From a virus (lineage: Duplodnaviria; Heunggongvirae; Uroviricota; Caudoviricetes): a stretch of 14,317 nt of DNA. Positions 1-14,317 of the stretch are shown here, in pieces. Under the pieces are notes generated by a model. It was given only the letters and a program-made list of their open reading frames with translations, made no database searches and was not told the DNA's origin. A program made the translations under genes and the position numbers. The stretch's first letter is position 1. Each line of letters opens with the position of its first letter. The stretch lies in IMG/VR virus record IMGVR_UViG_2648501130_000001, positions 1 to 14,317 of that record; one strand, 5' to 3'.

Positions 1-444
1 GACAATATAAAACCTTATTCGTCCGAGAATTCTGGCGAATCCTCTGACCTGCCAGAAAACGACCTTCCTGTGGTGAAAGCGGATGCTGCGATTCAGAACG
101 GCAGCAAGTGGGGGACAGCAGAAGACCTGACCGCCGCAGAGTGGATGTTTGACATGGTGAAGACCATCGCGCCATCAGCCAGAAAACCGAATTTTGCAGG
201 GTGGGCTAACGATATCCGTCTGATGCGTGAACGTGATGGACGTAACCACCGCGACATGTGTGTACTGTTCCGCTGGGCCTGCCAGGACAACTTCTGGTCC
301 GGTAACGTGCTGAGTCCGGCCAAACTCCGCGACAAGTGGACCCAGCTCGAAATCAACCGAAACAAGCAACAGGCTGGCGTGACAGCCGGCAAACCAAAAC
401 TCGACCTGACGAACACTGACTGGATTTACGGGGTGGATTTATGA
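1..444 (+). CDS. O: Replication initiator protein O, C-terminal portion (5' end lies upstream of the window)
   Basis: Frame 1 is open from base 1 to the stop at 442-444. Translation (DNIKPYSSENSGESSDLPENDLPVVKADAAIQNGSKWGTAEDLTAAEWMFDMVKTIAPSARKPNFAGWANDIRLMRERDGRNHRDMCVLFRWACQ...DWIYGVDL) matches my recollection of the lambda O C-terminal (P-interacting) domain almost residue for residue. Stop overlaps the P start (ATGA). Confidence 0.9.
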   Translation, partial: DNIKPYSSENSGESSDLPENDLPVVKADAAIQNGSKWGTAEDLTAAEWMFDMVKTIAPSARKPNFAGWANDIRLMRERDGRNHRDMCVLFRWACQDNFWSGNVLSPAKLRDKWTQLEINRNKQQAGVTAGKPKLDLTNTDWIYGVDL

Positions 445-1142
445 AAAACATCGCCGCACAGATGGTTAACTTTGACCGTGAGCAGATGTGCCGGATCGCC
501 AATAACATGCCGGAACAGTACGACGAAAAGCCGCAGGTACAGCAGGTAGCGCAGATAATCAACGGTGTATTCAGCCAGTTACTGGCAACTTTCCCAGCGA
601 GCCTGGCTAACCGGGACCAGAACGAACTGAACGAAATCCGCCGCCAGTGGGTGCTGGCTTTTCGGGAAAACGGGATCACCACAATGGAACAGGTTAACGC
701 TGGAATGCGCGTAGCCCGTCGGCAGAATCGACCATTCCTGCCATCACCCGGGCAGTTTGTTGCATGGTGCCGGGAAGAAGCATCCGTTATCGCCGGACTG
801 CCAAACGTCAGCGAGCTGGTTGATATGGTTTACGAGTATTGCCGGAAGCGAGGCCTGTATCCGGATGCGGAGTCTTATCCGTGGAAATCAAACGCGCACT
901 ACTGGCTGGTTACCAACCTGTATCAGAACATGCGGGCCAATGCGCTTACTGATGCGGAATTACGCCGTAAGGCCGCAGATGAGCTTGTCCATATGACTGC
1001 GAGAATTAACCGTGGTGAGGCGATCCCTGAACCAGTAAAACAACTTCCTGTCATGGGCGGTAGACCTCTAAATCGTGCACAGGCTCTGGCGAAGATTGCA
1101 GAAATCAAAGCTAAGTTCGGACTGAAAGGAGCCAGTGTATGA
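441..1142 (+). CDS. P: Replication protein P (DnaB helicase loader)
   Basis: 233-aa ORF MKNIAAQMVNFDREQM...KAKFGLKGASV, essentially identical in length and sequence to lambda P as I recall it. ATG overlaps the O stop; its own stop overlaps the ren start. Confidence 0.92.
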   Translation: MKNIAAQMVNFDREQMCRIANNMPEQYDEKPQVQQVAQIINGVFSQLLATFPASLANRDQNELNEIRRQWVLAFRENGITTMEQVNAGMRVARRQNRPFLPSPGQFVAWCREEASVIAGLPNVSELVDMVYEYCRKRGLYPDAESYPWKSNAHYWLVTNLYQNMRANALTDAELRRKAADELVHMTARINRGEAIPEPVKQLPVMGGRPLNRAQALAKIAEIKAKFGLKGASV

Positions 1143-1432
1143 CGGGAAAAGAAGCAATTATTCATTACCTGGGGACGCATAAGAGCTTCTGTGCGCAGGA
1201 CGTTGCTGCGGTAACAGGCGCAACAGTAACCAGCATAAACCAGGCTGCGGCTAAAATGGCGCGGACAGGAATCTTAGTTATTGATGGTAAGGTCTGGCGA
1301 ACGGTGTATTACCGGTTCGCTACCAGGGAAGAACGGGAAGGAAAGGTGAGCACGAATCTGATTTTCAAGGAGTGTCGCCAGAGTGCCGCGATGAAGCGGG
1401 TGTTGGCATTTTATCGCGGCAATTTTCAATAG
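1139..1432 (+). CDS. ren: Ren protein (lambda ren-like)
   Basis: 97-aa ORF MTGKEAIIHYLGTHKSFCAQDVAAVTGATVTSINQAAAKMAR... matches remembered lambda Ren (96 aa) in size, sequence and position directly after P. Confidence 0.85.
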   Translation: MTGKEAIIHYLGTHKSFCAQDVAAVTGATVTSINQAAAKMARTGILVIDGKVWRTVYYRFATREEREGKVSTNLIFKECRQSAAMKRVLAFYRGNFQ

Positions 1433-1468
1433 ACTATGTACATAAAAATATCATTTTTTAATACATGT

Positions 1469-1675
1469 CTAATTATTGGACGAAATTGGTTTTTGCTTTG
1501 GTTTAGTTAGCCTAGCAATCAAGCCAGAGGCAATAATGATGATCCAAGCAATTTGATGCAATGCTACTCCAATATAAGAACCTTTATAGATAATAAAGGC
1601 ATAGATCGCTAGAAACGAAATAAATATCCATAACGAAAGTTGATAAATTTTGGCGCGCATATTTAATCCAATCAA
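1469..1675 (-). CDS. Small hydrophobic membrane protein (two predicted TM helices), function unknown
   Basis: 68-aa ORF on the minus strand in an AT-rich segment, with two long hydrophobic stretches (LSLWIFISFLAIYAFIIY and IAWIIIIASGLIA) and a basic C-terminus. No recognised family, so coding status is uncertain. Confidence 0.4.
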   Translation of the reverse strand: MIGLNMRAKIYQLSLWIFISFLAIYAFIIYKGSYIGVALHQIAWIIIIASGLIARLTKPKQKPISSNN

Positions 1676-1916
1676 TCAGAAAGACGAGTAATCATAGAGG
1701 TACTATCACCCGGGTAACTATTGCTATTATGAACGGATAGGATAGAGGCTTCAATAACATATGCATCAAGTATGATGGAATATGTAGATGAAAATGACTT
1801 GTGTCAAATTTGTGGAAATGAGTACCATGTTTCTCTGAAATTGATGTCGTTAATGGCTAGTGATAGTGAACTTTTTTACTTTATAATTCCTTTGGTTATA
1901 ACAATAAGGTAAATTT

Positions 1917-2477
1917 ATGAAGAAGATAATATTATTAGCCATGATTATTGGTTCTTTAACAGGTTGCGCTAGTGTGCCACCATTGAATTTTTCAACACCT
2001 AACGTGGGAGTTAGCCAGAAAAAAATAGATGCTGAAATTAAGTCATTAACGGTATCACTTGCTCGTCCAGATGAGCAGAAAGGGGATATCACTGCTGGTA
2101 TGGAGGCTATAACTCCAATTTGGCGTGAATCTTTGCAGGAAGCACTCGACCGAATGACTATTTTTCGTGATAGTTCACCAAATACGGTTAGCTTAAATGT
2201 TAAAGTGTTGGCTCTTGACGTTCCTGCTTTTGGTGTTTCAATGACAACTAAAGCAATTGCAAGGTATGAAATAATCAACCGTGCGAATGGTGATATTATA
2301 TATACGCAGGATATTGAGTCTACCGGTACTGTTCCAGCCAGTTACGCATTCTACGGTATTGTTCGAGCACGCGAATCTGTTAATCGCGCGGTGCAAAACA
2401 ACATAACGCAGTTCTTGCAAGCATTAGAAAGTGTTGATCTTTCTCGTCCAATGTTTCCTGTTAGGGTAGCTAAATGA
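1917..2477 (+). CDS. Lipoprotein of unknown function (cargo gene)
   Basis: 186-aa ORF with a classic signal peptide and lipobox (MKKIILLAMIIGSLTG-C at Cys17). AAGG Shine-Dalgarno about 8 nt upstream. Stop overlaps the next ORF start (ATGA), suggesting an operon. AT-rich, unlike the flanking lambda DNA. Confidence 0.6.
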   Translation: MKKIILLAMIIGSLTGCASVPPLNFSTPNVGVSQKKIDAEIKSLTVSLARPDEQKGDITAGMEAITPIWRESLQEALDRMTIFRDSSPNTVSLNVKVLALDVPAFGVSMTTKAIARYEIINRANGDIIYTQDIESTGTVPASYAFYGIVRARESVNRAVQNNITQFLQALESVDLSRPMFPVRVAK

Positions 2478-2926
2478 AGCGATTATTCGTAATTGCTCCA
2501 CTCTTAGTGTTGGTTGGATGCGCACAAAATATATCGCCAAATAGTTATTCTGTTGGCTCTGTGGGCATGGTTAATCGAACTATCGCTGGTACAGTTATTA
2601 GTGCCAGGGGGGTTGATATCAGTGGGACTTCCGCGTTAGGCGGGACTGCTGGGGCTGCCGTGGGGGCAACCGCTGGTTCTGCGCTTGGTGGGGGAGTTCG
2701 TTCTAATATCGTTGGTGCCGTTGGTGGTGCAGTCATTGGTGGTATTGCCGGGGCAGCAATCGAATCTTCAGCAACAAAACAAACAGGCATGGAATATGTT
2801 GTCGAAACTGAGAATGGGAATTTAATGACCATTGTTCAAGGCAAAGATCCGTTATTTACTCAAGGAAGTAAGGTCCTTGTTTTATACGGAAACCCTTCTC
2901 GCATAATAACAGACCCGCGTCACTAA
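2474..2926 (+). CDS. Glycine-zipper lipoprotein (SlyB/YMGG-like outer-membrane lipoprotein family)
   Basis: 150-aa ORF with signal peptide and lipobox (LLVLVG-C at Cys16) followed by a long Gly/Ala-rich GxxxG-type stretch (GGTAGAAVGATAGSALGGGV...GAVGGAVIGGIAGAAIE) typical of glycine-zipper lipoproteins. Translationally coupled to the upstream lipoprotein. Confidence 0.65.
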   Translation: MKRLFVIAPLLVLVGCAQNISPNSYSVGSVGMVNRTIAGTVISARGVDISGTSALGGTAGAAVGATAGSALGGGVRSNIVGAVGGAVIGGIAGAAIESSATKQTGMEYVVETENGNLMTIVQGKDPLFTQGSKVLVLYGNPSRIITDPRH

Positions 2927-2966
2927 CATACCTTTTGATTTTGTAAAATCAATTCGTAATAATAAA

Positions 2967-2995
2967 GTCATCGGAGCTTGAACAACTCCGGTGAC
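2967..2995 (+). terminator. Stem-loop downstream of the lipoprotein operon (possible weak terminator)
   Basis: gtcatcggag (2967-2976) pairs with ctccggtgac (2986-2995) as a 10-bp stem with one G-U pair and a 9-nt loop. The following T tract is short (tt), so terminator activity is uncertain. Confidence 0.25.
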
Positions 2996-3116
2996 TTCTG
3001 CGCTAAACGGGGACGTTTATGCGCACATACAATCCAAACTCTCTTCTCCCTTCACAGATGCAGAAATGCACCTGCGATTTTTTGCATCCTGCGTTTGACC
3101 TCTGCGGAGGTGAAGC

Positions 3117-3572
3117 GTGAACCTACCACAAGATGGCATCAAATTACATCGCGGCAACTTCACCGCTATCGGCCAGCAGATCCAGCCTTATCTGGAGGAC
3201 GGAAAATGCTTTCGCATGGTGCTTAAACCGTGGCGTGAGAAACGCAGTCTTTCCCAGAATGCACTCAGCCACATGTGGTACAGCGAAATCAGTGAATACC
3301 TTATCAGCAGGGGGAAATCGTTCGCTACCGCAGCATGGGTAAAAGAAGCTCTCAAACACACATACCTCGGTTATGAAACCAAAGAACTGGTTGATGTCGT
3401 AACCGGTGAAATCACCACTATCCAGTCGTTACGCCATACCTCCGATCTTGATGCCGGAGAGATGTATGTCTTCCTGTGTAAGGTTGAAGCCTGGGCGATG
3501 AATATTGGCTGCCACCTGACTATTCCGCAGAGCTGCGAGTTCCAGCTGCTGCGCGACAAGCAGGAGGCGTAA
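3117..3572 (+). CDS. ybcN: YbcN-family protein (DLP12-type nin-region protein, reported DNA base-flipping protein)
   Basis: 151-aa ORF with GTG start, [58 protein letters not shown]..., closely matching my recollection of E. coli DLP12 YbcN (151 aa). GGAGG Shine-Dalgarno immediately upstream. Confidence 0.85.
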
Positions 3573-3742
3573 TGGCTACACCGCTTATTCGTGTCATGAA
3601 CGGACACATCTACAGAGTACCAAATCGTCGTAAGCGTAAACCTGAGCTGAAGCCATCCGAAATACCAACACTGCTCGGATATACCGCCAGCCTGGTTGAT
3701 AAAAAATGGTTGCGACTGGCAGCAAGGAGGAATCATGGCTGA
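3572..3742 (+). CDS. ninE: NinE-family small protein
   Basis: 56-aa ORF (below the ORF-track cutoff) found by manual translation: [59 protein letters not shown] overlaps the ybcN stop (TAATG); matches remembered NinE. Confidence 0.7.
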   Translation: MATPLIRVMNGHIYRVPNRRKRKPELKPSEIPTLLGYTASLVDKKWLRLAARRNHG

Positions 3743-4025
3743 TTTGAGAAAAGCAGCGCGTGGTCGGGAATGCCAGGTAAGAACCCCTGGCGTATGTAAT
3801 GGCAACCCTGAAACGTCTGTACTGGCACATATCCGGCTGACTGGATTGTGCGGCACCGGTACCAAACCGCCAGACCTGATTGCCACCATTGCATGTTCTG
3901 CCTGCCACGACGAAATCGACCGCCGCACACATTTTGTCGATGCCGCATATGCAAAAGAATGCGCGCTGGAAGGTATGGCGAGAACGCAGGTTATCTGGAT
4001 GAAAGAGGGGGTAATCAAGGCGTGA
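3735..4025 (+). CDS. ybcO: YbcO-family protein (DUF1364, Cys-rich putative metal-binding nuclease)
   Basis: The ORF track starts at 3696, but the internal ATG at 3735 gives a 96-aa protein ([64 protein letters not shown]...) matching remembered DLP12 YbcO. AAGGAGG Shine-Dalgarno at 3724-3730; start overlaps the ninE stop. Confidence 0.8.
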
Positions 4026-4384
4026 ATACCTACAACATCACATTACCCTGGCCTCCGAGCAATAATCGCTATTACCGCCATAATCGCGGGCGCACGCACG
4101 TCAGCGCAGAGGGGCAGGCATACCGCGATAACGTCGCCCGAATCATTAAAAACGCAATGCTGGATATCGGCCTGGCTATGCCTGTGAAAATCCGCATTGA
4201 GTGCCACATGCCGGATCGCCGTCGCCGTGACCTGGATAATCTGCAAAAAGCCGCTTTTGACGCACTCACTAAAGCAGGTTTCTGGCTGGATGATGCTCAG
4301 GTCGTTGATTACCGCGTTGTGAAGATGCCTGTTACCAAAGGTGGGAGGCTGGAACTGACCATCACCGAAATGGGGAATGAATGA
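4022..4384 (+). CDS. rusA: Holliday junction resolvase RusA
   Basis: GTG start at 4022 overlapping the ybcO stop. 120-aa product [47 protein letters not shown]...[11 protein letters not shown] matches remembered E. coli RusA nearly residue for residue. The longer ORF-track version (from 3848) is an in-frame upstream extension. Confidence 0.9.
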
Positions 4385-5139: not shown

Positions 5140-5664
5140 TTATTGTTTAACCCATAATAATTCATTGACATTGAATCCCAACTTTTGAGCGGTTCGCACA
5201 TAGTCTGCTTTTACTTTATCTGGAATAGTTGGGGTCCTTGCCAGAATCCATAGGTATTCTCTGTTCGGACCACTGACAAGAGCATACTTATACTCATCAT
5301 CCAGTTTGATTACATTATAGCCACCATAGAAGGGGCCAAAAAACGAAACCTTCAATGCTGCAGTTTTAGTATCTCCAGTAAAGTATGCTTTACCTTCGCT
5401 CTCGCTCCATTTATTTTTCGTTGGATCGTATCCACGGTTAAGTACACGAATCCCTCCGTCGTTCCGTTTTCCATAAGTAGCGCTGACCTGTTCCAGACCA
5501 CGTTCGAACCGGTTCTCGAGGCGAGCTATTTCATACCATTTTCCGAGGTAGCGGTTGGCGTCAAAATTTGTAATCGGCTGCACACCTTTAGGTGGTGTCG
5601 GGGCCTTACATGCTATAAGAGTGAAAGAGAGTGCAATGCCAGTCAACACAGGCCATAACTTCAT
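5140..5664 (-). CDS. blc: Outer-membrane lipocalin (Blc family) lipoprotein
   Basis: 174-aa ORF with signal peptide and lipobox (TLIA-C at Cys19) and the lipocalin motif NFDANRYLGKWYEIARLENRFERGLE. Aligns along its length with remembered E. coli Blc but is clearly divergent, i.e. a paralogue rather than the chromosomal blc. Confidence 0.85.
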   Translation of the reverse strand: MKLWPVLTGIALSFTLIACKAPTPPKGVQPITNFDANRYLGKWYEIARLENRFERGLEQVSATYGKRNDGGIRVLNRGYDPTKNKWSESEGKAYFTGDTKTAALKVSFFGPFYGGYNVIKLDDEYKYALVSGPNREYLWILARTPTIPDKVKADYVRTAQKLGFNVNELLWVKQ

Positions 5665-5856
5665 AATAAATCCTGTACTTTTGATAGTTGAGAGTAAGTA
5701 TGAAAGATAGATGATTACGACCGATCACTTAAAGAACTTTCATACTATATTAGGAATAGTCCATAACAGAAAAATTGTCAGTGATGACGCCAGAAAGGCA
5801 ATTTATTCCGTGCACTACACAGTTTATGTGTTAATGAATTAGTCAAGGGGGAGAAT

Positions 5857-6816
5857 ATGATAAAAAAACCTGTGATTGGAATCAGCGGTTGTTTGGCCGG
5901 TTCTGCTGTTCGTTTTGATGGTGGTCACAAAAGAGCTGACTTTTTAATGGACAAATTAGTGGAATGGGTAACATTCAGACCAGTATGTCCGGAAATGGCT
6001 ATAGGGCTGCCAGTTCCGCGTCCTGCTCTACGTCTTGTGCGCTCGATGCAAGGAAATATACGGATGTGTTTCAGCCACGACCAGAATGAGGATGTGACAG
6101 AGAGAATGACAGAGTTTAGTCGTTCTTATATGGACAAATTAAAGGATGTATCGGGGTTTGTGGTTTGTGCTAAATCTCCCAGCTGTGGCATGGAGCGCGT
6201 GCGTGTCTATGATGAAAATGGTAATCGAGGTCGTAAAGATGGAGTGGGACTATTTACGAGCACTTTGATGGAAAAGTTTTCCTGGCTACCGGTTGAAGAG
6301 GATGGGCGATTACATGATCCAGTGCTTCGTGAGAATTTTGTTGAAAGAGTTTTTGCTTTGCATGAGCTCAATCACCTTTACAAGGAGAAATTATCAAGAA
6401 GAGAGTTATTAGCTTTTCATAGTCGTTATAAGCTTCAGTTGTTGGCGCATAGTCAGGCAGGCTATAAAGATATGGGACCATTTGTGGCTGCAATACACGA
6501 GTGGGCGGACCTTGAATCATACTTTGAGGTGTATCGTGATAAGCTGATGGCGATTCTCAGAAAACCTGCATCACGTAAAAATCACACGAATGTGCTGATG
6601 CATATACAGGGGTATTTTAGTAACTACTTAAGTACACGCCAGCGTAAAGAGTTGAGCGAGGTTATACTTAACTATCGTTCTGGCACATTACCTCTTCTTG
6701 CGCCGTTGACTCTGCTGAAGCATTATCTGGGTGAGTATCCTAATGATTACTTGCTTACACAAAATTACTTCGATCCCTATCCGGACGAACTGGCTCTAAG
6801 ACTGATGGTAAATTAA
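5857..6816 (+). CDS. DUF523/DUF1722 two-domain protein (YbgA-like; TudS-type Fe-S domain plus DUF1722)
   Basis: 319-aa ORF. N-terminus (KKPVIGISGCLAGSAVRFDGGHK...RPVCPEMAIGLPVPRP...CAKSPSCGMERV) has the conserved Cys pattern I associate with DUF523/TudS; the C-terminal half resembles the DUF1722 part of E. coli YbgA. GGGGAG Shine-Dalgarno upstream. Confidence 0.8.
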   Translation: MIKKPVIGISGCLAGSAVRFDGGHKRADFLMDKLVEWVTFRPVCPEMAIGLPVPRPALRLVRSMQGNIRMCFSHDQNEDVTERMTEFSRSYMDKLKDVSGFVVCAKSPSCGMERVRVYDENGNRGRKDGVGLFTSTLMEKFSWLPVEEDGRLHDPVLRENFVERVFALHELNHLYKEKLSRRELLAFHSRYKLQLLAHSQAGYKDMGPFVAAIHEWADLESYFEVYRDKLMAILRKPASRKNHTNVLMHIQGYFSNYLSTRQRKELSEVILNYRSGTLPLLAPLTLLKHYLGEYPNDYLLTQNYFDPYPDELALRLMVN

Positions 6817-7310
6817 TTGTATGCGATATCATCCAAAAGGATGAGTTCCTGCATGCAGGATATTTACAATCGTAAAAACTACACTATGATACCCAGAGTG
6901 TCAGTTTGTATAAAAACTCTGTTTACGCTGAAGAAACAATTGAGATGCAACTTAAAGTTGGTAAACATGCCAGTCAAAATATATGATATTATGATTCCAC
7001 GCAGCTATATATAATATAACAGATTGGTTTAATAATTTGTCTTTGTGAGTTAAATACATAATTTTATACTTGTGATGTAATGAAATTTTCCTTATTGTTG
7101 AACTGGCGAATATTGATTTTCCACCTACACTTACCTGGTGTAACCCCAATGATATCAGGTGGATAATATGCCATACATATGTTCTATCATTTTGGTGTTG
7201 AATTCGTTTGATGTCCGAATTGGTAAAGAAGATATTTTGTTTAAAAAAGGAAGTGCTGTTCTCATTGATTACAATTTAAAAGATTTTTTTCATCAAATAT
7301 AGATCATGTA

Positions 7311-7898
7311 ATGATCGTAGATGTTGAAGAAAAAACAGTTAATGATTTCTTTAAAAGCAACACACTCTCACCTTTTTCTGTAAGAAGGTTTTATCCGGCA
7401 TACTTGATGGTGGAATGTGAAGATTTTTCATTGTTAAAGAACTTGATTGCATGCTTGAATTGTGATGGCAGAACTGTGGATTTTGTTAGAAATCAAATAT
7501 CACTTGCATGTCTTGCTATCTTATCTTCAGAGAAAATAGTGCAAAGTTTTTTATTTGGATGTCTTAATAGTTTAGGAAGTAAAGTTAAGGCTATTATTCA
7601 CACGGATATATCTGCAGCATGGAGACTTTGTGATATATCTTCAAGACTGTATCTGAGTGAAAGTCTGTTAAAAAGAAAATTAAAGCACGAAGGCTTATCA
7701 TTTAGTAAGTTAATTCTTGAAGAGCGAATGGTGATGGCGGAAAGGTTATTAAGCTACAATTTATATTCTGTTGGAAAAGTTGCTGAGATATGCGGTTATG
7801 AAAACACGTCATATTTTGTAAGTGTTTTCAGAAGGTATTTTGGTGTTCCTCCCCATCAATATTCATCAAGATTTTTTTTAGAAAAAGACATGATGTAA
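7311..7898 (+). CDS. Short AraC/XylS-family transcriptional regulator (AppY/GadX-like HTH domain)
   Basis: 195-aa ORF with the C-terminal AraC-type double HTH signature (...VGKVAEICGYENTSYFVSVFRRYFGVPPHQY). An in-frame stop at 7266-7268 caps the N-terminus, so the sensing domain is only about 100 aa. Very AT-rich. Confidence 0.7.
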   Translation: MIVDVEEKTVNDFFKSNTLSPFSVRRFYPAYLMVECEDFSLLKNLIACLNCDGRTVDFVRNQISLACLAILSSEKIVQSFLFGCLNSLGSKVKAIIHTDISAAWRLCDISSRLYLSESLLKRKLKHEGLSFSKLILEERMVMAERLLSYNLYSVGKVAEICGYENTSYFVSVFRRYFGVPPHQYSSRFFLEKDMM

Positions 7899-10842: not shown

Positions 10843-11403
10843 ATGGAAGTCAACAAAAAGCAGCTGGCTGACATTTTCGGCGCGAGTATCCGTACCATTC
10901 AGAACTGGCAGGAGCAGGGAATGCCCGTTCTGCGGGGTGGTGGGAAGGGTAATGAGGTGCTTTATGATTCTGCCGCCGTCATAAAATGGTATGCCGAAAG
11001 GGATGCTGAAATTGAGAACGAAAAGCTGCGCCGGGAAGTTGAAGAACTGCGGCAGGCCAGCGAGACAGATCTCCAGCCAGGGACTATTGAGTACGAACGC
11101 CATCGACTTACGCGTGCGCAGGCCGACGCACAGGAGCTGAAAAATGCCAGAGACTCCGCTGAAGTGGTGGAAACCGCATTCTGTACTTTCGTGCTGTCGC
11201 GGATCGCAGGTGAAATTGCCAGTATTCTCGACGGGATCCCCCTGTCGGTGCAGCGGCGTTTTCCGGAACTGGAAAACCGACATGTTGATTTCCTGAAACG
11301 GGATATCATCAAAGCCATGAACAAAGCAGCCGCGCTGGATGAACTGATAAAGCGCAGGCGCTCACTATCAACAAGGATGAGGTTAACTCAACAGTTGATT
11401 TAA
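10843..11403 (+). CDS. nohD: Terminase small subunit Nu1, C-terminally truncated at a deletion junction (NohD-like)
   Basis: MEVNKKQLADIFGASIRTIQNWQEQGMPVLRGGGKGNEVLYDSAAVIKWYAERD...KAMNKAAALDELI matches lambda Nu1 up to about residue 169; the final 17 residues (KRRRSLSTRMRLTQQLI) are unrelated, so lambda homology breaks near base 11349. No terminase large subunit gene follows. Confidence 0.85.
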   Translation: MEVNKKQLADIFGASIRTIQNWQEQGMPVLRGGGKGNEVLYDSAAVIKWYAERDAEIENEKLRREVEELRQASETDLQPGTIEYERHRLTRAQADAQELKNARDSAEVVETAFCTFVLSRIAGEIASILDGIPLSVQRRFPELENRHVDFLKRDIIKAMNKAAALDELIKRRRSLSTRMRLTQQLI

Positions 11404-12056
11404 CCCTTACAAAACAATCAGGGACTGGCAATCGTTTTGTTTTACAGAACTCAGGTAATGCAGAACTACCGTTTTCTGTCAGGGTGTGGGGTTCCAGTAC
11501 TCGACAAAACGTTTTTGAGGTTGGAACGTCTGCTGCGTATCTGTTTTATGCGCAAAAAACGTCAGCAGGCCAGTTGTTTGATGTAAATGGCGCTATTAAT
11601 TGCACAACGCTGAATCAGTCATCAGACCGCGACCTTAAAGACGATATTCTCGTTATCAGCGACGCGACGAAAGCAATCCGTAAAATGAACGGGTACACCT
11701 ACACGCTCAAGGAAAACGGAATGCCTTATGCTGGCGTTATTGCACAGGAAGTAATGGAGGCGATACCTGAAGCTGTGGGATCGTTTACTCATTATGGTGA
11801 AGAGTTGCAAGGTCCGACCGTTGACGGCAACGAGCTACGCGAAGAAACTCGCTATCTTAATGTTGACTACTCCGCCGTGACGGGGTTACTTGTTCAGGTC
11901 GCCCGTGAAACAGATGATCGCGTTACCGCGCTGGAAGAGGAAAATACAACGTTACGTGAAAATCTGGCAACAGCAGGCACCCGGATCACCACTCTGGAAA
12001 ATCAGGTAAGCGAACTGGTTGCACTTGTCGGGCAGTTAACAGGAAGCGAACATTGA
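11343..12056 (+). pseudogene. Tail-fibre C-terminal fragment with intramolecular-chaperone (peptidase S74-like) domain; no 5' part or start context
   Basis: Frame 0 is open from the stop at 11340-11342 to the TGA at 12054-12056. The translation contains the autoproteolytic chaperone signature as I recall it (LNQSSDRDLKDDILVISDATKAIRKMNGYTYTLKENGMPYAGVIAQEVMEAIPEAV), preceded by fibre-like sequence. The ORF-track version starts at a GTG (11484). Confidence 0.6.
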
Positions 12057-12239
12057 TATCCTTCAAGCCCTGAAGGAGGCTGTTCCTGGTACGTTCAGAC
12101 TGTTGTTGAGCTGGAAATCGCAACGGAGGAAGAAACCTTGTTGCTGGAAGTCTGGAAGAAGTATCGGGTGTTGCTGAACCGTGTTGATACATCAACTGCA
12201 CCTGATATTGAGTGGCCTACGAACCCTGTCAGGGAGTAA
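12057..12239 (+). pseudogene. Tail-fibre assembly protein (Tfa) 3' fragment, in frame directly after the tail-fibre fragment stop
   Basis: The same reading frame continues after the TGA at 12054-12056 as [60 protein letters not shown], the conserved C-terminus of lambda-type Tfa proteins. No start codon or N-terminal Tfa sequence. Confidence 0.6.
12111..12239 (+). repeat. Direct repeat copy A (about 129 nt, tfa 3' end); partner at 13160-13288
   Basis: ctggaaatcgcaacggaggaagaaaccttgttgctggaagtctggaagaagtatcgggtgttgctgaaccgtgtt... aligns colinearly with 13160-13288, roughly 85-90% identical over the first 105 nt and diverging near the 3' end. Confidence 0.8.
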
Positions 12240-12293
12240 TCATTGGGATTATGCCGCAGCACGTCTTAAGCAAGAGCGAGCTGCGGTTGGATG

Positions 12294-12962
12294 CTATTTT
12301 TTCCCTGAAGCGGAAAACATTACTACAGTACCTTGAACCTTGGTTTTAACATTCTCGAAATGCTCTGAGAGTATATGTGTTAAGCCTTCTTCGGAATCTT
12401 TTGTGTTTGAAAAGATGCCTTTCTGATTGTAAATGCGCATCAGTTTTTGACCGAAGCTATTGTGCACAACTCCATCGCCAAGAATTGTGGCTCCGTATAG
12501 AGTTCCATCGTCAGTTAAGGCCTGCGCCGCATTGCGTATTACACAGCTTTTTGTAGATATATTTCCAGGCAGGCAGTGAAGAAGGTAAAACATGGAAATG
12601 GAATCAAATTGACCATGTAACGCCGCGGGATAAGGTTCAAAAACATCATGGCTAATTTTATGTTTAATTTTTGATTCCCCAGCCCTTGTAGATGCCGCGT
12701 TCAGGCTAGCTTCGTTCAAATCCATTAAAGATATCAGACTACTCTCAGGTACGTGAGTAAGGTAAAACCCAGTTCCAACACCAATATCCAGATGGTTGTT
12801 ACCTAAATGTTCCAGAAAGTGTGGAAGAAGGTGTTCCTTTGTAGGACATCCCCATGCAAGCCGATTTGATACTCCCAAAACCCACCAGTCATAAAGCTTT
12901 AGGGTAAGTGGTGTGTAAATTTTAGCCCCATCATCTGTGTTTTTTTTCATTAATTTCACCAT
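12294..12962 (-). CDS. ybcY: Class I SAM-dependent methyltransferase (YbcY-like), apparently intact
   Basis: 222-aa minus-strand ORF with Rossmann-fold methyltransferase motif I (HLDIGVGTGFYL). Resembles the DLP12 ybcY product, which I recall as a disrupted gene in E. coli K-12; here the frame is open throughout. Alternative start at 12950 (MKKNT...). Confidence 0.75.
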   Translation of the reverse strand: MVKLMKKNTDDGAKIYTPLTLKLYDWWVLGVSNRLAWGCPTKEHLLPHFLEHLGNNHLDIGVGTGFYLTHVPESSLISLMDLNEASLNAASTRAGESKIKHKISHDVFEPYPAALHGQFDSISMFYLLHCLPGNISTKSCVIRNAAQALTDDGTLYGATILGDGVVHNSFGQKLMRIYNQKGIFSNTKDSEEGLTHILSEHFENVKTKVQGTVVMFSASGKK

Positions 12963-13105
12963 GTTATAGTTTTGTTTGTGAATTAAATCAATTATGGTGA
13001 TGAATTACAAGGGGTTAAATGCTGCCGCAGCATAGCGATATTGAAATAGCCTGGTATGCTTCGATACAGCAGGAGCCGAATGGCTGGAAGACCGTCACCA
13101 CATAG

Positions 13106-13288
13106 TTCTACATCCAGGAATTCAGTGAGCATATTGCGCCACTTCAGGATGCTGTAGATCTGGAGATCGCAACGGAGGAAGAAAACTCGTTGCTGGAAGC
13201 CTGGAAGAAGTATCGGGTGTTGCTGAACCGTGTTAATACAACAACTGCACCGGATATTGAATGGCCAACAGTACCCATTATCGAATAG
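13106..13288 (+). pseudogene. Tail-fibre assembly protein (Tfa) C-terminal remnant (tfaX-like)
   Basis: After an in-frame TAG at 13103-13105 the frame reads [60 protein letters not shown] with no Met, a typical Tfa C-terminus. A short upstream ORF (ATG at 13019, 28 aa) may be a further fragment of the same degraded gene. Confidence 0.6.
13160..13288 (+). repeat. Direct repeat copy B (tfa 3' end); partner at 12111-12239
   Basis: See copy A. Same orientation, with the methyltransferase gene between the copies on the opposite strand. Confidence 0.8.
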
Positions 13289-13297
13289 TGCATTACG

Positions 13298-13334
13298 AAC
13301 TGCAGGATATTATATGGGATAATATTCTGCAGTT
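13298..13334. repeat. 16-bp inverted repeat with 5-nt spacer between the tfa remnant and the convergent GGDEF gene
   Basis: aactgcaggatattat (13298-13313), loop atggg, ataatattctgcagtt (13319-13334): 15 Watson-Crick pairs plus one G-T. No clean T tract follows on either strand, so it is either a bidirectional terminator-like hairpin or a protein-binding palindrome. Confidence 0.7.
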
Positions 13335-13361
13335 TATTGGGGCTGTATTTTAAAAAGGTGT

Positions 13362-14234
13362 TTATTTTGAGTGAATTATCACCTTGTTTTTTCCGGTTCT
13401 TTTGGCTTGATATAACGCTTTATCGGCATTGACTAACATTTCAGATGGGCTGAGATTATTCTCTTTTGAAGTAAAGCAACCAATACTGACAGTTATTTTC
13501 TCAGGTCCATGCGATAATAATTTTTCCGAGCATTGCTCTTCAATGTTTTTTCTGATTCGCTCTGCAATTGATAGCAAGAGCTTTTGAGTATTACCTTTAA
13601 TGATAATACCGAACTCCTCACCGCCTAAGCGCCCTAATACATCCTCTTTCCTGATGGATTTTTTTATTATTCTGGTAACCATTACTATGACTTGATCACC
13701 CATATGATGCCCCCATTTGTCATTGATGCTTTTGAAACTGTCAATATCTAACATTATTACTGAGAAATCATGGTGTTTTGATATATTCTTCAATGAGTCA
13801 ATAAAGTATCTTCTATTGTATGTATTCGTTAGTGGATCATGAATTGCCATATGATTAGCATGATTTAATTTCCTGAAAACATAATACATGAGTGTTGAAA
13901 TGATATAAATCATTGATATCAATTCAAGAAATTTTGTCATATACCATGCAGGATGGGATTTATCAATAAAATACAATAAAATTAGATTATTGCATACTGA
14001 CACTATACTAATAAGTATTATACACAACCATATTTTTGAGTAATTACGTATGCTGATGCATGAGCTGATAAGTAATACAAGCCAAAATACTGATATTATT
14101 TTGGTGTACACGATATTCCACGTCGGCAAATGACGATTCAGCGAGTATTGTATAATATTAAGACTATATTTTATATTGTCACTGCTTAGATTTTTTGCTA
14201 CAAACGGAGTAATAAAAAGAATTAATATTGACAA
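13362..14234 (-). CDS. Membrane-anchored GGDEF-domain diguanylate cyclase (intact GGEEF active site and RxxD I-site)
   Basis: 290-aa minus-strand ORF with an N-terminal half of several hydrophobic helices and a C-terminal GGDEF domain (HDPLTNTYNRRYF...IMLDIDSFKSINDKWGHHMGD...IRKEDVLGRLGGEEFGIII): RKED lies five residues before GGEEF. Strongly AT-rich. The true N-terminus may lie upstream of the annotated Met. Confidence 0.85.
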   Translation of the reverse strand: MSILILFITPFVAKNLSSDNIKYSLNIIQYSLNRHLPTWNIVYTKIISVFWLVLLISSCISIRNYSKIWLCIILISIVSVCNNLILLYFIDKSHPAWYMTKFLELISMIYIISTLMYYVFRKLNHANHMAIHDPLTNTYNRRYFIDSLKNISKHHDFSVIMLDIDSFKSINDKWGHHMGDQVIVMVTRIIKKSIRKEDVLGRLGGEEFGIIIKGNTQKLLLSIAERIRKNIEEQCSEKLLSHGPEKITVSIGCFTSKENNLSPSEMLVNADKALYQAKRTGKNKVIIHSK

Positions 14235-14317
14235 AACAACAATTATTATGTTTCTTTTATCTTCTAAAACACTTTTATTTTTAACATTGGTGGAATAAAC
14301 AGCCAGAAAGATTATAG

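Follow-up and report, generated by a model that had tools for sequence, protein, structure and literature searches.

A probable relic of an old S74 fibre-tfa mosaic in a DLP12-like defective prophage, with a tfa stub that may act as a homology arm

The window, i.e. the whole stretch of 14,317 nucleotides analysed here, carries lambda P, RusA, an essD/rrrD/Rz lysis cassette, Nu1/nohD, a DUF1398 gene and cargo genes. Its ORF listing contains no head or tail ORF from 11403 to the fibre fragment, as in DLP12-like defective prophages, and the window is itself a defective lambdoid prophage of this type. Its sequence is identical (100%) to a region of E. coli YD786, and the arrangement in which nu1 runs into fibre DNA is common to 187 complete E. 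coli genomes. The features of the locus are as follows.

10843..11349, + strand: nu1/nohD-like small terminase gene, cut near codon 169 (Pfam Phage_Nu1, positions 1-164 of 164, E 4e-101)
11345..11349, no strand: junction left by a deletion that joins nu1 to the middle part of the side-tail-fibre gene (last nu1 match at 11349, first fibre match at 11345-11348)
11350..11618, + strand: distal shaft/tip fragment of a side tail fibre, about 90 codons, without a start of its own (nucleotide identity to stf)
11619..12053, + strand: C-terminal intramolecular chaperone (Peptidase_S74, PF13884), complete, with coiled-coil tail
12054..12056, + strand: native TGA stop of the fibre (identical stop in full-length stf)
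12057..12093, + strand: 37-nt spacer, moving together with the fibre cassette (two main alleles in 51 copies)
12094..12239, + strand: tfa 3' stub, the last ~46 codons and the stop of a 194-codon lambda-type tfa, without a start (PF02413)
12294..12962, - strand: YbcY-like class I SAM-dependent methyltransferase, intact (Pfam methyltransferase domains; annotated in record L001)
13112..13288, + strand: second tfa 3' fragment, tfaX-like (PF02413, positions 77-130 of 131, E 1.5e-24)

The methyltransferase is a neighbour only and lies outside the fibre system; Ayreon lacks it, the gene being missing between the homologues of 12329 and 12989. The core of the second tfa fragment (13143-13269) repeats 12094-12220 in direct orientation with 89% identity (repeat family D1), and on its 3' side lies a GGDEF/MASE4 gene, after which ybhB-bioA come in strain CUVET25-1155. 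In YD786, PGAP has labelled the fibre piece 'tail fiber domain-containing protein, incomplete, missing N-terminus' and the tfa piece (also in RefSeq) 'tail fiber assembly protein, incomplete, missing N-terminus', both at exactly matching positions.

A preliminary description of this DNA had reported one frame from 11343 to 12239, interrupted only by the TGA at 12054-12056, and the translation agrees, with 299 codons, this single internal stop and a terminal TAA. The frame opens directly past a TGA at 11340-11342; its codons over 11343-11349 are nu1 DNA read in another frame, and fibre homology sets in at 11345-11351. The two domains recognized by the same description, an S74-type chaperone signature before the stop and a conserved Tfa C-terminus after it, were both confirmed. 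The translation of 11343-12053 matches Peptidase_S74 (PF13884) at amino acids 94-145 (50.5 bits for a cut-off of 22, E 2.5e-13, profile positions 1-57 of 58), and that of 12057-12236 matches Caudo_TAP (PF02413; 70.2 bits, E 2.5e-19) over profile positions 87-130 of 131 only. Judged by these scores, both homologies are far beyond chance. The S-D-x-x-x-K motif lies at S94/K99 of the frame (11622-11639), the serine and lysine of which we take, from the endosialidase literature, to be the catalytic dyad of autoproteolysis; the S74 chaperone domain is cut off after fibre folding. The sequence 'SSDRDLKDDI' of the window (SSDRDLK at 11619-11639) aligns with 'SSDRRIKKDI' of Salmonella phage S16 gp37 (PDB 6F45), and in Mu Tfa (5YVQ; 175 residues) the stub aligns with positions 134-174.

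Upstream of the chaperone domain, 11350-11618 shares 92-95% nucleotide identity with stf of Ayreon and mEp460 and 99% with the 1103-aa fibre of the viral contig L042, and protein alignment to solved structures gave a weak similarity to the shaft repeats of T4 gp34. An NCBIfam scan returned no family for the full-length L042 fibre, the window fragment or the stub. The window holds no complete, virion-anchored fibre, since 235 codons remain without a start; the anchor domain phage_tail_N (PF08400), present in L042, Ayreon and mEp460, is deleted.

According to the preliminary description, the two fibre systems are joined head-to-tail. This proved incorrect: the TGA is the native stop of the fibre, and Tfa homology sets in only at 12094, after 37 unrelated bases. 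The identical stop closes the full-length stf of Ayreon (L004, 948-4706) and of mEp460 (L005, 1098-4706), and a stop equal to 12054-12056 is also found in 49 viral contigs. Neither K-12 tfaD' nor lambda tfa nor PhiR26_1 tfa resembles the spacer, and 12057-12093 likewise matches no fibre gene outside its own lineage. It contains AAGGAGG and a 6-bp hairpin, neither of them significant. As a candidate ribosome-binding site, AAGGAGG was rejected because no in-frame start follows it, and as a candidate terminator the hairpin has a fold z-score of 0.09 relative to shuffled sequences.

Tfa consists of a variable N-domain, which binds the fibre tip, and a conserved C-terminal helical domain (PMC9608196). 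The stub corresponds to the latter: its nucleotide identity is 95.7% to K-12 tfaD', 97.4% to PhiR26_1 tfa and 84.8% to lambda tfa, and all three alignments begin at 12094, i.e. at about residue 147-149 of the 194-residue Tfa. The variable fibre-binding N-terminal domain was not found at the stub, the 37 nt upstream being unrelated. There is no ATG, GTG or TTG in frame between 12057 and 12137 and no ORF listed in this frame; an in-frame TTG occurs at 12138, 8 nt past a GGAGG. The stub looks untranslated and is presumably not expressed.

The event that is specific to the window, and that was missing from the preliminary description, is the nu1::stf deletion at about 11349. K-12 nohD is 100% identical to the window up to this position, and many genomes match the query only to its position 550, which is 11349 of the window; beyond it, the nu1 ORF runs on out of frame for 18 codons in fibre DNA to a stop at 11401-11403. 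As nu1 homology ends at 11349 and fibre homology starts at 11345-11348, as measured against Ayreon, DDG220 and mEp460, we conclude that this was an illegitimate deletion at a microhomology of 2-5 nt. From the Ayreon coordinates, where the small terminase ends near 520 and the equivalent of the fibre breakpoint is 22224, its size is estimated at ~21 kb, between codon ~169 of nu1 and codon ~870 of the fibre. Only the last 235 fibre codons are left, and the deletion turns the whole region into a pseudogene remnant. The fibre end and the tfa stub therefore carry little weight locally, both being dead remnants that RefSeq already labels as incomplete.

L042 is 99.0% identical to the window over 11348-14317 and carries J (1132 aa), Lom and an intact 1103-aa fibre (phage_tail_N at 3-136, S74 at 960-1011) before the matching stub, followed, as in the window, by the methyltransferase, the second tfa fragment and the GGDEF gene. 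By its sequence, L042 is effectively the undeleted form of the window. Judging from this relative, the fibre/spacer/stub junction predates the window's deletion, because L042 has it behind an intact fibre and it is thus older than the truncation of the locus.

The junction is also widespread. A 211-nt probe over fibre end, spacer and stub (coverage of at least 80%) detected it in 804 of 5426 complete E. coli genomes, where the genes above it are typically full-length and labelled 'prophage tail fiber N-terminal domain and S74 family peptidase'. An exact scan for the spacer found it in 49 IMG/VR viral contigs, in most of them after open fibre frames of 1100-1370 aa. The matching stop, spacer and stub occur as well in Ayreon (MF807953) and mEp460 (JQ182728), both plaque-forming phages, whose stf genes encode 1252 and 1202 aa, respectively. 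In their complete genomes, tblastn with lambda and PhiR26_1 Tfa as queries detected residues 147-194 of Tfa only, and therefore neither phage has a working Tfa. Exact-pattern scans of species-representative genomes gave 0 matches; as an exact match the junction was detected only in genomes of E. coli strains, their phages and IMG/VR contigs, and it may occur elsewhere at lower identity. We found no published description of a tfa stub behind S74 lambdoid fibres in the literature. The junction itself is ordinary and already annotated.

Concerning its origin, 'parents' of the kind that the preliminary description had suggested looking for could be recognized on both sides: on the right PhiR26_1 with an intact tfa and K-12 DLP12 with a longer tfa fragment, in a downstream context like that of the window, and on the left T5-like fibres. 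PhiR26_1 (PV340555) has the order Lom, Stf (1025 aa), full Tfa (194 aa), YbcY and a tfa fragment, and is 97.4% identical to the window over 12094-13243. Outside the lambdoids, the closest match in the phage collection comes from the T5-like slur09, whose long tail fibre has 72% nucleotide identity over 11352-11936; no donor was found for 11937-12093, i.e. the 3' end of the chaperone domain plus the spacer. Receptor-binding modules of the S74/T5-like type are known to move horizontally between phage groups and to be interchangeable with other C-terminal heads (bioRxiv 10.1101/2024.09.12.612763, PMC12143355). The replacement took out precisely the two parts that co-vary, the fibre tip and the Tfa N-domain, and spared the conserved tfa domain. 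Recombination between two different fibre systems, as put forward in the preliminary description, thus stands in part: an S74 end beside a Tfa remnant is best explained by past recombination, but this was not an event specific to the locus.

Taken together, these observations make it very probable that the locus is an inert remnant in a DLP12-like prophage, in which an old S74/tfa mosaic was later cut by the ~21 kb deletion and the stub is a homology arm. In the first step of the history that we propose, an S74-type fibre end would have taken the place of both the Tfa N-domain and the receptor-binding end of a lambda-type Stf, leaving only the conserved last ~46 tfa codons; we infer the direction and the donor of this replacement. 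As S74 fibres use their own chaperone, the carriers would need no Tfa. The resulting ancestor may have resembled L042, with J, Lom, a 1103-aa fibre, the tfa leftover, the methyltransferase, the second tfa fragment and GGDEF, and the single illegitimate deletion of ~21 kb described above would then have produced the window. The stub, for its part, would persist and spread because it closely resembles the 3' end of every lambdoid tfa and so provides a right-hand homology arm for the homologous recombination that carries fibre cassettes from one lambdoid phage to another.

Variation among the copies bears on this last step. At its distal end the stub falls into 17 ungapped clusters, as against two main alleles of the spacer. 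Its endings in ~50 copies include PAVPVME, PTNPVRE, PALP, PEEPDTV and TVNPVWPPPSKR, of which PAVPVME is that of intact lambda tfa and PTNPVRE that of intact PhiR26_1/DLP12 tfa, and the allele at the stub end tracks the downstream context rather than the fibre type. Gapped BLAST distinguished 13 downstream contexts among 44 copies, replacing a first ungapped clustering that had given 16 clusters and was possibly inflated by indels. Each of the two main fibre types occurs with 6-7 downstream contexts, and in several contexts different fibre types are found. Since stub-end alleles and contexts are mixed across fibre types, we read this pattern as the signature of repeated crossovers inside the stub, and it suggests that the stub serves as the right-hand arm for the exchange of fibre cassettes. 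In lambda x Rac crosses, one-third of the recombinants were resolved in a 95%-identical tfa stretch (De Paepe et al. 2014, PMC3945230). In 2G7b/Tritos another S74 cassette, unrelated to this one and consisting of a split fibre and a 99-aa membrane ORF, also ends in a tfa stub; this stub has other upstream sequence, carries a 1-nt deletion, does not lie next to the fibre gene, and has its breakpoint displaced inward by ~10-20 nt. The near-coincident breakpoint fits recurrent use of the boundary and would otherwise be a coincidence, unless the boundary is favoured.

A separate observation concerns the reading frame of the stub, which is open to the natural Tfa stop in all but 1 of ~50 copies (L020 is frameshifted). 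Such open frames could hint at constraint and are equally expected from low divergence and replacement by functional tfa.

Some alternatives to an inert homology arm have to be weighed. The stub might act as non-coding DNA, i.e. as a transcript 3'-end or stability element, a cargo promoter or an invertase target, a proposal that we regard as quite unlikely. It would suit the conservation of the stub and of ~50 nt beyond it beside many different cargo genes, the PinR recombinase encoded just downstream in Tritos and the idea of invertase-driven stf exchange cited in PMC3945230, but scans detected no terminator-like site in 12057-12300 and no enrichment of promoter-like sites there, the hairpin is not significant, 11300-13400 contains no inverted repeats and the window has no invertase gene nearby. 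Very unlikely, in our opinion, is that the stub is a working part, reached by read-through or internal initiation, or a universal docking sequence that second-order selection keeps because it makes S74 cassettes portable between lambdoid phages; the only hints in this direction are the 2G7b/Tritos breakpoint and the almost always open stub frame.

More specific, and highly improbable, is a functional frame in which read-through of the TGA or re-initiation supplies a Tfa trimerisation helix to the S74 fibres of intact phages; even so, the element in the window would still be dead. In keeping with such a role, the frame is continuous in every copy and the stub frame intact with one exception, what has been kept of Tfa is precisely its conserved helical domain, the presumed driver of trimerisation, and the TTG at 12138 has its GGAGG 8 nt before it. 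Polymorphism, though, indicates no coding constraint: over the 78 nt after the stop there are 6 non-synonymous and 1 synonymous changes, compared with 27:45 in the last 100 fibre codons. Moreover, frame continuity is no independent evidence, because all copies inherit one ancestral junction, which had a prior of 1 in 3 of being in frame. The 2G7b/Tritos stub has its 1-nt deletion and does not adjoin a fibre, L020 is frameshifted, the GGAGG merely consists of codons of the conserved ATEEE motif, and the extension would be lost upon cleavage of the S74 domain. A read-through fusion as such was judged unlikely from the polymorphism pattern and the 2G7b and L020 frameshifts. The shared frame, which the preliminary description had pointed out, is thus probably incidental.

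Scarcely credible is the literal reading of that description, in which recombination in this genome or a recent ancestor made a new fibre-Tfa chimera at the locus: both homologies are real, adjacent and in one frame, and an E. coli genome has several recombinable tfa copies, with a median of 3 matching places per genome, but the same junction, spacer included, stands behind full-length fibres in the 804 genomes, 49 contigs and two cultured phages, L042 has it from before the truncation, and the other copies hold the fibre 5' part absent here and so cannot descend from the window locus.

The preferred reading, an inert remnant whose stub is a homology arm, draws attention to the fact that S74-ended lambdoid Stf dispense with Tfa yet nearly always retain the last ~46 tfa codons. 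For annotators, it explains the 'tail fiber assembly protein, incomplete' that follows S74 fibres in hundreds of genomes, and for fibre-swap engineering of lambda-type particles it suggests natural junction points, with no chaperone gene needed. What is mildly new is the evidence suggesting that the tfa leftover is a recombination arm of S74 fibre cassettes; the features themselves carry annotations in identical RefSeq entries.

Among known systems, the Stf of mEp460 and Ayreon resemble the window with 93-95% nucleotide identity over fibre fragment, stop, spacer and stub and with an S74 C-terminus, but their stf are full length (1202 and 1252 aa), whereas the window keeps the last 235 codons and no start. 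The L-shaped or long tail fibre of T5 type (Tequintavirus slur09) shares the tip, the chaperone domain and the self-chaperoning logic; it differs in its N-terminal anchor and genome context, its similarity does not reach the final 120 nt of the chaperone domain, and in slur09 the fibre is followed by an oppositely oriented gene and nothing Tfa-like. To the Stf-Tfa pair of lambda and PhiR26_1 the window is related through the stub, which equals the last ~46 Tfa codons (85% and 97% nucleotide identity, respectively), and the downstream context of PhiR26_1 is identical to that of the window; these phages, in contrast, have a complete 194-aa Tfa with its fibre-binding N-domain and a fibre without S74.

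K-12 DLP12 (nohD - aaaD' - tfaD' - ybcY' - tfaX' - appY) has, like the window, a lysis cassette, nohD, a tfa 3' end, YbcY and a second tfa fragment, with 96.2% identity over 12094-13265, and both are deletion remnants without head and tail genes. In K-12, however, a terminase-large fragment is joined to a 146-codon tfa fragment and there is no fibre DNA, whereas in the window nu1 is joined to an S74 fibre end and ~46 tfa codons are kept. The methyltransferase is intact in the window and frameshifted in K-12, and on the right flank the GGDEF gene of the window is next to ybhB-bioA, as against appY-ompT in K-12. Finally, the recombinants of De Paepe et al. (2014, PMC3945230) show a crossover pattern inside tfa, produced by relaxed homologous recombination, like that proposed here; there the conserved stretch belongs to a working gene, whereas in the window it is a non-functional leftover.

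Within the window, an intact gene for a YbcY-like methyltransferase lies between two 3' remnants of tfa, the lambda-type tail fibre assembly gene.

12094-12220 and 13143-13269: pair of tfa 3' stubs, forming a direct repeat of 127 nt (89% identical)
12294-12962: YbcY-like methyltransferase gene, in the opposite orientation to the stubs

Because the stubs flank this gene and phage Ayreon is missing a counterpart of window positions 12330-12988, the methyltransferase looks, from sequence comparison, like a cargo insertion with tfa ends as its borders. Other cargo-like prophage genes (5140-7898) were observed in the interval that separates the lysis cassette from the nin/RusA region.

5140-5664, minus strand: lipocalin
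5857-6816: 2-thiouracil desulfurase/DUF1722 protein
7311-7898: AraC-type regulator

About 50 copies of the stub left behind the S74-ended fibre gene were compared, and all are open through to the natural Tfa stop except that of IMGVR_UViG_2718218453_000005, which is frameshifted (…EVWKSIGCC*). The Ayreon stub (about 4744-4889 of L004, the comparison sequence from this phage) is not annotated, and the gene called there, which starts within the stub and ends beyond it, is probably a spurious prediction.

L004 4831-5022: SJJBTUD_0021, annotated "hypothetical protein"

A different S74 fibre cassette was found in phages 2G7b and Tritos, where the tfa stub that follows starts from another breakpoint and has lost 1 nt.

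L009 (2G7b) 157-4330 and L010 (Tritos) 160-4320: cassette encoding an Stf N-terminal protein (791 aa), an ORF of 93 aa, an S74 fibre (345 aa) and a hydrophobic ORF of 99 aa

Neither the 93-aa nor the 99-aa ORF had a match in Pfam. Upstream of the S74 fibre sequence of the window, the small terminase gene nu1 breaks at codon ~169 and is joined to the side-tail-fibre gene (stf), an arrangement common to 187 complete E. coli genomes.

11345-11403: deletion junction, nu1 to mid stf, with microhomology of 2-5 nt

The junction appends 18 out-of-frame codons, KRRRSLSTRMRLTQQLI, to the Nu1 ORF, with a stop at 11401-11403.

The right end of the prophage is marked by a diguanylate cyclase gene.

13362-14317, minus strand, and 5563-8477 of L002, a comparison sequence: stretches with the GGDEF/MASE4 diguanylate cyclase gene

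This gene is followed in strain YD786 by IS1 rather than ybhB-bioA. Since ybhB-bioA do come after it in strain CUVET25-1155, the DLP12-like element is placed, on gene order, beside the bio operon, the lambda attachment region, whereas K-12 DLP12 adjoins appY-ompT.
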